From NCBI GenBank assembly GCA_046539325.1, contig JBKHHD010000006.1, positions 1-64,000 on the forward strand: DNA of 64,000 nt. Direction: 5' to 3'. Positions 2,890 through 64,000 of this stretch are shown here, piece by piece. A program made the translations under genes and the position numbers. This stretch comes from Candidatus Aenigmatarchaeota archaeon. GTDB taxonomy: Archaea > Aenigmatarchaeota > Aenigmatarchaeia > PWEA01. Every line of letters starts with the position of its first letter. Position 1 is the first letter of the stretch. The notes beneath the pieces were generated by a model. That model was given only the letters and a program-made list of their open reading frames with translations. It did not search any database and was not told the origin of the DNA.

Positions 2890-3037
2890 TGGACCCGGTG
2901 GGATTTGAACCCACGGTCTCCACCATTTCGGGTTTTGATGAACCTTTTTTCGAAAAAGGTTCTTGCCAAGGTGGCGTCTTTTCGGTACAACCGAAAATAA
3001 AAATTCGGTTTCCGTATTTCCACTAGACTACGGGCCC
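2890..3037 (-). tRNA. tRNA-Ala(GGC) with two 38-nt introns (D-loop 2980-3017; 37/38 at 2926-2963)
   Basis: Acceptor GGGCCCG/CGGGTCC with G3:U70; anticodon stem CCACC/GGTGG; loop TTGGCA|T; T-loop TTCAAAT; BHB-like pairing at both junctions. Confidence 0.9.
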
Positions 3038-3099
3038 TACTGTCAGATGAAATAAATTAAGATGTAAAGATAAAAAGATTGGGGTTGACCGGATACTCC

Positions 3100-3624
3100 T
3101 CAACGAACTACCTCATGTCCTGAAACCATCTCAGAGCCTTTCCAGAGGTAGTAGATGCTTAACGCGCCAGTAATCCCGAACATCATCCATTTGACCGTAG
3201 ACTCTTTTTTGTCCATGTGCACTACTCTCTCTTTATCACCGTACCTTTTCTCATGGCCTGAAACGGGTATGGACACCTTGTAAAGGAGATACAAAGCTGC
3301 TAACGGAGCAACAATGAACGAGATGAATCCAAAGGCTCCACCTACCATACCACCCCGAGTTCCTACGGCTGTTTCAGCAAAGATTGCTGATCCCCCTGCT
3401 ACAAGTATTATAGCAGGTAGAAGTAGGATTAGGAACCATTTACCTGTGGACTCCTTCTCATCTAAGTGATCAACAACCTGGTATTCATTTGACACACTGA
3501 CACCGTGGCCTGAGACTACTTCGGCAATCTTCCAAAGGTAGTACAGGTTTACGATAGGTATTAGAGCTATAATGAACCATGTCCATGTTGGCTCTTTGGA
3601 TTCTCTGTGTGAAAGATTTGGAAT
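3100..3624 (-). CDS. membrane protein with three internal repeats (H..KE.T..W...YLWK..E.VSGH); probable ATT start
   Basis: Track ORF 3100..3495 extends 43 codons upstream through a third repeat to ATT at 3624, preceded by GAGGTGA-TAAA; in-frame TGA just upstream. Confidence 0.8.
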   Translation of the reverse strand: MPNLSHRESKEPTWTWFIIALIPIVNLYYLWKIAEVVSGHGVSVSNEYQVVDHLDEKESTGKWFLILLLPAIILVAGGSAIFAETAVGTRGGMVGGAFGFISFIVAPLAALYLLYKVSIPVSGHEKRYGDKERVVHMDKKESTVKWMMFGITGALSIYYLWKGSEMVSGHEVVR

Positions 3625-3690
3625 TTTATCACCTCTTCAAGCTTTGTTTTATAAGTATAAAAATCTGGCCAACGGATATAGAGAAGAAAA

Positions 3691-3868
3691 TGGTGGGCCT
3701 GCGCGGATTTGAACCGCGGATCTCCACCTTTTCCCAGTCTTTTTCGCGAACGTTTTTGCAGCTTGCTGTAAAAAGGCTCCGTGAAGGTGGCGTCATTTGT
3801 GGACAACTCTTTTCGTGAACGTTTTGCGCGTCAGCGGAAAAGGTTCTTAGCCACTAGACTACAGGCCC
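3691..3868 (-). tRNA. tRNA-Val(CAC) with encoded CCA and two introns (D-loop 3797-3848, 52 nt; 37/38 at 3730-3779, 50 nt)
   Basis: Acceptor GGGCCTG/CAGGCCC-ACCA; CCACC-TTCACG|A-GGTGG; D-loop GTGG pairs with intron CCAC (BHB central helix). Confidence 0.9.
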
Positions 3869-4406: not shown

Positions 4407-4490
4407 AAGTAGGACGAGGATTGCTGAAGGAATCCTTCGAAAACCTTCCATTGAAAGATTTTTTTGCAATGTTTTTTCTAAAGAAGAAGA

Positions 4491-4645
4491 TGGGACCGCC
4501 GGGATTTGAACCCGAGATCTCCGGCTTTTACGCGTCGCGAAACAAAATTTACCGCGACGGGCCTTATAAGACCGGCGCTTTGGTCAAGTCTTTTGATGAA
4601 ACTTTTTCTAAAAGTTTCTTTCTAACCAAGCTAAGCCACGGTCCC
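4491..4645 (-). tRNA. tRNA-Ile(TAT) with two introns (22/23 at 4580-4621, 42 nt; 38/39 at 4526-4563, 38 nt)
   Basis: Acceptor GGGACCG/CGGTCCC-A; CCGGT-CTTATAA|GCCGG; BHB helices GGTT/GACC and TTAT/GTAA. Confidence 0.87.
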
Positions 4646-4709
4646 ATACCGAAACAAGGTATAGTTGCAGTTAAAGCTTTTTATTTTTGAGCAGTTAAAA
4701 AGATTTAAC

Positions 4710-41294: not shown

Positions 41295-41468
41295 ATGTCA
41301 ATAAAGTCTTTCCTGAAAAGCTGCAGTAGGGTACTGAAGGTAGCTACAAAGCCTTCTAGGGAAGAGTTTTGGCAGACGGCGAAGGTGACAGCTATAGGAA
41401 TACTTTTGATAGGAGCAATAGGCTTCAGCATCTTCTTGCTCTTTCAGGTTCCAGGATTAATAGGGTGA
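41295..41468 (+). CDS. secE: preprotein translocase SecE/Sec61gamma
   Basis: Hand-translated MSIKSFLKSCSRVLKVATKPSREEFWQTAKVTAIGILLIGAIGF…; lies between ftsZ and spt5. Confidence 0.93.
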   Translation: MSIKSFLKSCSRVLKVATKPSREEFWQTAKVTAIGILLIGAIGFSIFLLFQVPGLIG

Positions 41469-41472
41469 AACT

Positions 41473-41913
41473 ATGGCTCTGATAACATTAAAGACGACTA
41501 TAGGACGCGAATCCACTGTAATGAACGATATACAGGAAAGGGTGAAGTCTGAAGGATACGATATAAAGGCTATGGTTCATCCTGGCGAGCTCGACGGCTA
41601 CGTTATAATTGAAGGTAGAGAAGGGGATATAAGGAAGATCATAAGGAATACAAGACATGCGAAAGGTATAATATCCGACGACGTTGAAATGAACGAGATA
41701 AATCAGTTCCTCGAATCCGACGAGATAGAGATAGAAGTTGAGAGAGGAGATATAGTTGAAGTTGTAGGAGGTCCATTTAAAGGTGAGAAAGGTAAAGTAA
41801 CAAGGGTTGACGAAGCGAACTCTGAGGTGACCCTTGAGCTGCTCGAGGCTACGGTTCCTATACCGGTTACAGTTGGAGTAGGTTCGGTAAAGATACAGGA
41901 AAGTGGTGAATGA
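41473..41913 (+). CDS. spt5: transcription elongation factor Spt5/NusG
   Basis: TTIGRE, GYVIIE, KOW motif GDIVEVVGGPFKGEKG. Confidence 0.95.
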   Translation: MALITLKTTIGRESTVMNDIQERVKSEGYDIKAMVHPGELDGYVIIEGREGDIRKIIRNTRHAKGIISDDVEMNEINQFLESDEIEIEVERGDIVEVVGGPFKGEKGKVTRVDEANSEVTLELLEATVPIPVTVGVGSVKIQESGE

Positions 41914-48742: not shown

Positions 48743-49216
48743 TCACTTGTTTTTTAGTGCAGTCTTATAAATACTTCTCCATTCATTCGCCAGCTTCTCT
48801 AAATGTGAAGAAAAGGACTTAGAGGGCTTGAGAACCATAAACCATCCCCTTCCAGGATCGGACTCTACCGCTTCTCTTTCCCTTTGAAGTATACCGAATT
48901 TGACCAGTTTGGGTATCACTACGTTATAGGCAGTAGAGGACGGTATACCCTCATTTTCAAGGAAATCAGAAAGTATATCCTTGTCAACGCCATCAGAATT
49001 CGAGAGCACAAAATCAACAAGCTTCGTGGCATATTTATTACTCCTTTCCTGGTAGTCTTCGGGAAAAATGTGGTTTATGACGTCCTCCAGATCCCACCTA
49101 ATATCCCCATCTATGGAGGGCCAATCCTCGCCTTGAACGGAGGGGAAGAAAAGGCTTTCTTTGCTTTTCAGTGTTTCGCCCTCAACTGGAACAGGTTTAT
49201 CGTTTCCCTTGGAAAT
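48743..49216 (-). CDS. winged-helix protein; probable ATT start
   Basis: Frame open 69 codons upstream of the track GTG to ATT preceded by GGTGA-TAAA; STAYNVVIPKLVKFGILQRER is wHTH-like. Confidence 0.75.
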   Translation of the reverse strand: MSKGNDKPVPVEGETLKSKESLFFPSVQGEDWPSIDGDIRWDLEDVINHIFPEDYQERSNKYATKLVDFVLSNSDGVDKDILSDFLENEGIPSSTAYNVVIPKLVKFGILQREREAVESDPGRGWFMVLKPSKSFSSHLEKLANEWRSIYKTALKNK

Positions 49217-63473: not shown

Positions 63474-63540
63474 AATTCGCGCCACGTTCGTTTCTTTGTC
63501 TGAAACCCGGCTTCATAAAACTTATAACTCTTAACAAACT

Positions 63541-64000
63541 ATAGCCGTTTTTGTACTTCTGTTCGCGGTAGCTGTCGTTGCAGGCTGCACAGGCGATGGA
63601 GCACCGGAAGAAAACGGTGGTGGTACCAACGGCGGTGATTTCAACAGAGAGGCCGTATCAGACCAGGAGACCTACTCCGGCGAATGGTCAGGCTCGATTG
63701 GTGCAATGGGCGTCGAAGAAGAATACAGCGGAACGTGGCAGTTCGAGGTTGACTTCGAAGAAGGAACTGTAGAAGGTTGGTTTGAAGGCGACGGTTCTGG
63801 CGATATATCCGGAACGTTCTCAGACGGAACTATAAGCACAGAAGCCGAAGGAGACGCTGCTATGGGCGCAATAAAGTGGTCCGATGACTTTTCAGCTGAC
63901 GGTGAAGAAGTTTCAGGTACCTGGGAAGGTGCTGAAGATGTTCCTGGATCCGGAACATGGAGCGGCTCACTGGGCGCAGTAGAGGAAGAGGAAGAACAAG
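63541..64000 (+). CDS. putative lipoprotein, runs off window end; no canonical start
   Basis: IAVFVLLFAVAVVAG|CTGDG lipobox, then G.W.G repeats; in-frame TAA at 63532 and no ATG before the lipobox. Confidence 0.65.
   Translation, partial: MAVFVLLFAVAVVAGCTGDGAPEENGGGTNGGDFNREAVSDQETYSGEWSGSIGAMGVEEEYSGTWQFEVDFEEGTVEGWFEGDGSGDISGTFSDGTISTEAEGDAAMGAIKWSDDFSADGEEVSGTWEGAEDVPGSGTWSGSLGAVEEEEEQ

Follow-up and report, generated by a model that had tools for sequence, protein, structure and literature searches.

Where does translation begin in a gene that has no canonical start codon ahead of its conserved coding sequence? This question is raised by a minus-strand gene, 3624..3100, in a stretch of 64,000 nucleotides (nt) from a Candidatus Aenigmatarchaeota archaeon (assembly GCA_046539325.1, contig JBKHHD010000006.1, positions 1 to 64,000), called here the window. 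The window is contig C6 of the genome G000 (715 kb, 10 contigs, 45% G+C, 91% complete). An earlier note on this DNA had proposed an ATT start for the gene, and the comparative evidence set out below makes it very probable that translation starts at AUU 3624. On the minus strand, the region reads TGA (3639-3637) AGA GGT GAT AAA ATT (3624-3622) CCA AAT CTT, and the open reading frame (ORF) from ATT 3624 stays open down to the stop at 3100-3102, over 174 codons plus the stop. The note had placed the TGA four codons above ATT. The TGA does close the frame, but it is the fifth codon above, and none of the four sense codons in between (AGA GGT GAT AAA) is near-cognate. An upstream ORF running into this frame is excluded because no more than 66 nt separate ATT from the tRNA gene on its 5' side. 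Conserved coding sequence is found 5' of every in-frame ATG, GTG or TTG, with the TGA just above it.

The sequence GAGGTGA (3635-3629) precedes ATT by 4 nt, as the note had seen, with TAAA as spacer. T3628 extends the match to 8 nt, and the resulting Shine-Dalgarno (SD) sequence GAGGTGAT is the exact complement of the 3' end of the 16S rRNA of the same genome (...GGATCACCTCC, G000:C2:+56750). When SD matches of 5 nt or more were counted, 138 of the 530 first ATG starts of G000 carried one, and a spacing of 4 nt was the mode (66/138), meaning that the ATT has its SD at the spacing typical of ATG genes. A match of 8 nt was found on only 8 first ATG starts, and one of 9 nt on 1. The comparator chosen in the note, spt5, has GGTGA-AACT-ATG at 41464-41475 (+), which opens an ORF of 146 amino acids (aa) matching TIGR00405 (Spt5) at 7.8e-39.

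Orthologs were searched in 41 genomes, G000 included, with the 174-aa protein as query. The gene was present in five of them, G000 included, all belonging to one genus. The aligned start codon is ATT in G000, G001 and G002, ATC in G003 and ATA in G006, so that AUH (ATT, ATC or ATA) is kept in all five, and in each of them GGTGA or GGTGG followed by 4 nt precedes it. In G003, a TAA four codons above the start codon is the counterpart of the TGA of G000. A canonical codon upstream of the aligned start occurs only in G002 (TTG four codons up), while the nearest canonical codon on the downstream side, at codon 44, 36, 36, 24 and 65 in the five orthologs, is not kept in position. Over codons 2-43, the ratio of nonsynonymous to synonymous substitution rates (dN/dS) was 0.07-0.2 in the six of ten pairs with unsaturated dS, and by this measure these codons are under purifying selection. 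When the N-termini of ten more distant homologs were aligned, six had their annotated Met in the column of ATT 3624 (P0006, P0008, P0009, P0012, P0013 and P0014), the MPSLSH of homologs aligning with the IPNLSH of our product. The remaining four begin upstream of this column. Moreover, two loci titled 'Hadarchaeota' have SD+TTG and ATG starts a few codons before an L-E-H motif. As for the ATG that the note had thought sequencing data might reveal at 3622-3624, Logan contigs of 789 nt from two runs (X1 and X2) span 3000-3723 with 0 differences from the window, a check made at the level of contigs, in which rare variants, starts and ends are not visible. The runs listed as containing the stretch are DNA metagenomes of a microbial mat and a hypersaline lake, from one study, with no RNA run among them.

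The note had also described three repeats in the product, the first lying wholly upstream of the first ATG, GTG or TTG. We found them with the approximate consensus K-K-E-S-T-x-K-W-F / transmembrane (TM) helix / N-L-Y-Y-L-W-K-x-x-E-x-V-S-G-H-E, and repeat 1 is indeed wholly 5' of GTG 3495. In an AlphaFold2 (AF2) model of the 174-aa protein (mean pLDDT 80.9, pTM 0.70), helices are formed by residues 13-38, 60-87, 92-122 and 143-169, residues 13-38 being TM helix 1. According to this model, a start at codon 44 would delete TM helix 1 and half of a beta-hairpin. Profile searches with the product gave no Pfam or NCBIfam family above cut-off, weak DUF2583 matches below cut-off were seen for 6 of 15 family members, and a structure search of the PDB with Foldseek returned nothing at E <= 0.001.

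We propose that a short-leadered mRNA would present the 8-nt SD GAGGUGAU 4 nt upstream of AUU, that the SD would place the P site of the 30S subunit on AUU 3624, and that the ordinary initiator tRNA (anticodon CAU) would pair there with a third-position mismatch and presumably insert Met. The product would be the 174-aa protein with its four TM helices and three repeats, and the 131-aa call from GTG 3495 would be a truncation. The yield of AUH starts would be expected to depend on the level of aIF1, the initiation factor that proofreads start codons, whose own gene starts at AUC. A TATA-like TTTTTATA element lies about 35 nt upstream of the AUH codon, ending about 31 nt before it, in all five orthologs (upstream 45 nt compared). 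Taken with the usual archaeal TATA-to-start distance, it suggests a short predicted leader (about 8-11 nt) that would hold hardly more than the SD.

So short a leader is also a point in favour of another reading, that the ATT is used on a leaderless or nearly leaderless mRNA and that the conserved GGTGA does not act as an SD; the 392 of 530 first ATG starts (~74%) that have no SD in G000 speak for it as well. However, the predicted leader would still include the SD, and the GGTG[A/G]+4 nt geometry, which is the modal spacing of ATG genes, recurs at six of the eight AUH genes found in the genome (the distance is 6 nt for aIF1 and 5 nt for GlmS), and we consider this reading unlikely.

A changed initiator tRNA was tried as the cause of AUH starts and rejected, the anticodon loop CTCATAA being shared by 4 of 8 genomes of other orders and by the 12 genomes of the order in which the pattern was located. 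The initiator tRNA of G000 is ordinary (anticodon CAT, A1:U72, GGG/CCC stem). Four genomes of other orders (loci L174, L185, L190 and L193) have an initiator-like loop CCCATAA, with C at position 33. The factor aIF1A is present in G000, and a profile search did not find aIF2beta (PF01873) there. The idea that a lost aIF2beta had relaxed the stringency was not upheld, PF01873 being found in nearly all relatives (39 of 41; 6 of 7 in the genus), and its absence from G000 is probably an assembly gap.

Translation from GTG 3495, giving a 131-aa protein with the upstream 43 codons as a leader or decaying remnant, is the start picked by gene callers (P0001), and this GTG has GGTG at SD spacing 4 (ACGGTGTCAGTGTG). 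We regard it as very unlikely: the codon is not conserved, being GTC in G003, with the first canonical codon of the other orthologs scattered as given above, the low dN/dS was obtained over the very codons that this start would leave out, in other lineages the homologs have their starts level with the ATT or upstream of it, and the truncated form would be without TM helix 1. Finally, an ATG turned into ATT by an error of sequencing or assembly, or a pseudogene that has lost its start, is hardly credible even though a single G-to-T change would suffice and the genome is a metagenome-assembled genome (MAG), given that five independent assemblies have ATT, ATC or ATA at this codon, that the contigs of both runs agree, and that purifying selection acts on the intact ORF.

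How common are such starts in G000? A codon-usage score split coding from non-coding ORFs cleanly and left ~775 coding-like ORFs. The screen for start codons covered SD-led genes only, which makes the AUH count a lower bound. At SD spacing 4, whether on the first canonical start or in front of it, the codons were ATG (66), ATT (5), TTG (5), GTG (4) and ATC (2), and canonical starts at SD spacing 4-6 were ATG (120), GTG (9) and TTG (9). After removal of sites explained by a neighbouring canonical start, ATT and ATC together made up 6 of the 26 unexplained non-canonical sites at spacing 4, against a background of 3.4% (p = 2e-4), and 11 of the 99 at spacing 4-6 (p = 6e-4). Since the statistic for SD plus AUH is modest, the candidates were checked one by one. 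Eight AUH starts among the ~775 ORFs (~1%), or ~5% of SD-led starts, are well supported on comparative and sequence grounds. Altogether, AUH starts are recurrent in G000, and as frequent as GUG or UUG among SD-led genes. The claim of the note that AUU starts are used routinely was thus right about recurrence and overstated the frequency; AUC and, in orthologs, AUA are used as well. The genome-wide table of codons behind the SD, which the note had suggested as a check, showed the enrichment of ATT and ATC at spacing 4, modest as it is, and not routine use.

We counted 17 occurrences of the motif GGTGR-N4-ATH in the window, where shuffled sequences have 9.7 +/- 3.1 and 1 shuffle in 100 reaches 17. 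Fifteen of the 16 matches other than that of the 3624..3100 gene were examined: 13 of them have canonical starts upstream in frame, and behind the last two (15916 and 32836) no more than 12 and 27 codons are open. The match not among these fifteen, at 49216, is a second real AUH case. Because the motif alone is not rare, the AUU start of the 3624..3100 gene rests on a combination, namely the upstream stop, the lack of a canonical start and the comparative data.

The other AUH-start genes are listed in Table 1. In the NYN ribonuclease (RNase), position 1 of the Pfam profile corresponds to residue 10, and the first ATG is residue 20. The Pfam profile of the PIN_9 protein starts at residue 4, that is, 8 residues before the first ATG (residue 12). 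The start codon of the 49216 gene is ATT in G000, G003 and G004, and ATG in G001 and G007; no Pfam or NCBIfam family was matched by its 157-aa product. In GlmS, the codon before the catalytic Cys is ATG in 26 of 29 relatives, GTG in 2 and TTG in 1. Class II amidotransferases need that Cys as the N-terminal residue, and therefore initiation at the ATC of G000, followed by Met removal, is implied. Two ATA candidates were judged false: the one at C4:6866 has the ATG of enolase itself downstream, and the one at C3:66973 belongs to a dubious ORF. Two further ORFs were noticed. In a Zn-ribbon ORF (G000:C4:10473 (-), L048), ACG, a candidate start, follows a TAA and is preceded by GGGGTG at 5 nt; a canonical codon first occurs 16 codons in, and no orthologs were found in five genomes of the genus. 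At 63535-64000 (+) of the window, a lipoprotein-like ORF (...AVAVVAGC) has a TAA two codons above ATA 63541 and no canonical start before its signal peptide. It is without the Lys/Arg-rich n-region found in its orthologs in G001 (TTG start) and G007 (ATG start), and may begin at AUA with no SD or have suffered damage at its 5' end.

Several points weigh against an AUU start at 3624 or against a wide use of AUH codons. As said, GTG 3495 has an SD-like sequence of its own, and judging from it an extra internal start may yield a 131-aa form in the species of G000. The codons GGT GAT AAA ATT could be read as conserved coding sequence (G-D-K-I), and only two stops, one in G000 and one in G003, exclude this reading. 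Both the N-terminus of the product and the residue inserted there are inferred, as is the point where transcription begins, and runs X1 and X2, being from a single study, may be the sample behind the genome assembly. At the level of the genome, a first, looser screen gave ATT no better than p = 0.03, AAA (8 sites) exceeds ATT or ATC taken singly at spacing 4-6, and the screen, which demanded an SD, is silent on whether AUH starts need one. Moreover, the ATC of GlmS was seen in G000 only, at the level of the assembly.

The AUH gene that stands out is that of aIF1, which matches Pfam SUI1 at 7e-21 and NCBIfam PRK00939 end to end. Its start region in G000 reads GAGGTGAAAA TAA ATC GCT AAC TGT CCC GAC TGT, with ATC directly after the TAA and 6 nt behind GAGGTGA. 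We compared it in 22 genomes of the same order or closer and in 18 genomes with a match from other orders of the class. Within the order, the codon at the start position is ATC in 17 genomes, ATT in 1 and ATA in 4. In 18 of the 22, the stretch from the upstream stop to the zinc knuckle's first Cys has no canonical codon; the other four have ATG or GTG directly before this Cys, at a distance of 15 nt from the SD. The canonical codon that follows is 5 to 45 codons downstream. In the other orders, aIF1 starts with ATG in 14 genomes, GTG in 2 and TTG in 1, and with none of these in 1. This last genome (G033, locus L043) has no ATG, GTG or TTG before the zinc knuckle (TGA AAA AAA CTG AGT GAT GTA TGT), and a CTG start is possible there from the sequence. 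In the T-[IV]-[IV]-x-G motif of aIF1, the order has Asn (22/22) where other orders have Gly (17/17).

Within the genus, ATG or TTG replaces AUH in other genes, whereas aIF1 has only AUC, AUU or AUA across the whole order. As aIF1 stays AUH order-wide while the others flip, this pattern argues that its weak start is maintained by selection. A non-canonical start carried clade-wide by the gene of the factor itself fits an infC-like loop. According to passages of one article (PMC4705826), S. solfataricus aIF1 makes 30S complexes reject AUU mRNA, and the AUU of infC takes part in an autoregulatory feedback (PMC4705826). Because of this activity and this precedent, an infC-like feedback loop at aIF1 appears plausible by analogy. 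More tentatively, and as a possibility that we think has less than an even chance, the order might have a start-codon 'stringency regulon', in which a change of the aIF1 gene from AUG to AUH, kept since in all 22 genomes, lets aIF1 limit its own production, AUH genes are co-tuned to aIF1 activity, and the Gly-to-Asn substitution is part of the same shift. If true, the set would comprise the NYN and PIN RNases, the KH protein, GlmS, the ABC transporter and the 3624..3100 membrane protein, and feedback as in bacterial IF3 and eukaryotic eIF1 would have arisen independently a third time. To relate genome-wide AUH use to the AUH start of aIF1, 400 kb each were screened of a genome of the order (G021) and of one from another order (G028). 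In G021, AUH enrichment was not significant (p = 0.25-0.33), and two strong single cases were aIF1 (ATC) and an rpoN-like gene (ATT); G028 is almost without SD-led genes (ATG 10). The rpoN-like gene of G021, which represents another family of the order (G021:C1 ~82278 (-), L147-L166; IFIPIRCISCGK...), starts with ATT behind GAGGTGAT+4. The rpoN of G000 itself has an ATG start.

Table 1. Features of the 3624..3100 gene (positions in the window) and of the other AUH-start genes (contig and position in G000, or position in the window).
Feature	Location	Strand	Basis or remark
Full coding sequence, four-helix three-repeat membrane protein	3100..3624	-	translation, alignments, dN/dS, AF2 model
ATT, proposed initiation codon	3622..3624	-	orthologs, homolog Met column, contig match
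Shine-Dalgarno GAGGTGAT	3628..3635	-	16S 3' end match; 4 nt (TAAA) to ATT, GGTGA register
In-frame TGA, frame closed	3637..3639	-	four sense codons separate TGA from ATT
TATA-like TTTTTATAC	3655..3663	-	distance kept in all 5 orthologs
GTG, codon 44, first canonical in-frame start	3493..3495	-	used in public 131-aa call
Repeat 1, residues 4-41	3502..3615	-	L-x-H ... K-E-x-T-W-x-W-F, TM helix 1, NLYYLWK..VSGH
Intron-containing tRNA gene with its end 66 nt 5' of ATT	3691..3868	-	ARAGORN with intron option; anticodon call unreliable
Winged helix-turn-helix-like 157-aa protein, second AUH gene in window	48743..49216	-	12-mer GGTGATAAAATT, context identical to 3624 gene
NYN RNase	C1:47354		ATT in 8/8 genus genomes, behind AGAGGTGA+4
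PIN_9	C1:88895		ATC in 5/6, ATT in 1/6
KH protein	C8:17415		ATC in 6/6
ABC transporter	C4:14481		same codon ATT in 3, ATG in 2, TTG in 1
GlmS	C1:86836 (L047/L050)		ATC directly before catalytic Cys
aIF1/SUI1	C2:78061-78366 (L012/L017)		ATC; AUH in 22/22 order genomes

The note had predicted that gene callers truncate such genes, and this is what the databases contain. The 3624..3100 gene is listed with 131 aa (P0001) and its orthologs with 140, 141 and 151 aa, and aIF1 is found in forms of 93 aa and 60-63 aa. Forms of aIF1 of 101 aa beginning MANCPDCG (P0023 and P0024) also exist, for G000 and for an NCBI record, and because of them at least one annotation source must accept the ATC start. AUG, GUG and UUG are commonly regarded as the start codons of archaea. 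NCBI table 11 already permits ATT, ATC and ATA. Callers restricted to ATG, GTG and TTG would systematically truncate or miss genes in DPANN MAGs, distorting protein families and domain calls. In the full-text literature outside subscription papers, our searches turned up no description of AUH starts for Aenigmatarchaeota or DPANN, nor of an aIF1 gene beginning at a codon other than AUG. The mechanism is known near-cognate, SD-led initiation, and what sets this case apart is its frequency, its archaeal setting and the clade-wide start of aIF1. This lineage offers a natural test bed for start-codon stringency set by the aIF1/aIF2 machinery, and the conserved AUH start of aIF1 makes archaeal autoregulation of initiation fidelity directly testable.

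In the neighbourhood of the 3624..3100 gene, we observed that tRNA genes with long inserts flank it on both sides, at 2890-3037 (-) and 3691-3868 (-). They were missed by ARAGORN without the intron option and by Rfam at the gathering threshold, and switching that option on gave anticodon calls that do not look reliable. At 4489-4646 (-) of the window, ARAGORN called a 'tRNA-Stop(tta)' with an intron, which Rfam scores as a tRNA at 44 bits. By eye, its anticodon loop is CTTATAA (anticodon TAT, tRNA-Ile for AUA), and a second insert lies in the D region.

Among known proteins, the 3624..3100 product resembles membrane proteins of Hadesarchaea and MSBL1 (P0013, P0020 and others), with three repeats, four helices and 39-55% identity over 97-100% of the length. 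Unlike our gene, these homologs, all uncharacterised, start with ATG or TTG. As to its start, the gene is like infC (IF3) and pcnB of E. coli, in which a near-cognate AUH codon, an ordinary initiator tRNA, an SD and a frame closed just upstream are likewise combined. It differs from them in that the host is an archaeon with aIF1/aIF2 machinery, and in that all three AUH codons interchange among orthologs, AUH alternating with ATG or TTG in two genes. E. coli has two or three AUH-start genes, whereas at least eight (~1%) are present in this 715-kb genome. Finally, aIF1 resembles the autoregulated fidelity factors (infC with its AUU, eIF1 with its poor-context AUG), in that the gene for the factor rejecting non-AUG codons itself has a weak start. 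For eukaryotic eIF1, autoregulation through the poor-context AUG was reportedly described by Ivanov and colleagues in 2010, and we know of no archaeon in which feedback of this kind has been demonstrated. aIF1 is homologous to eIF1 and unrelated to IF3, yet its weak element is the codon, as in bacteria, and not the context, as in eukaryotes.
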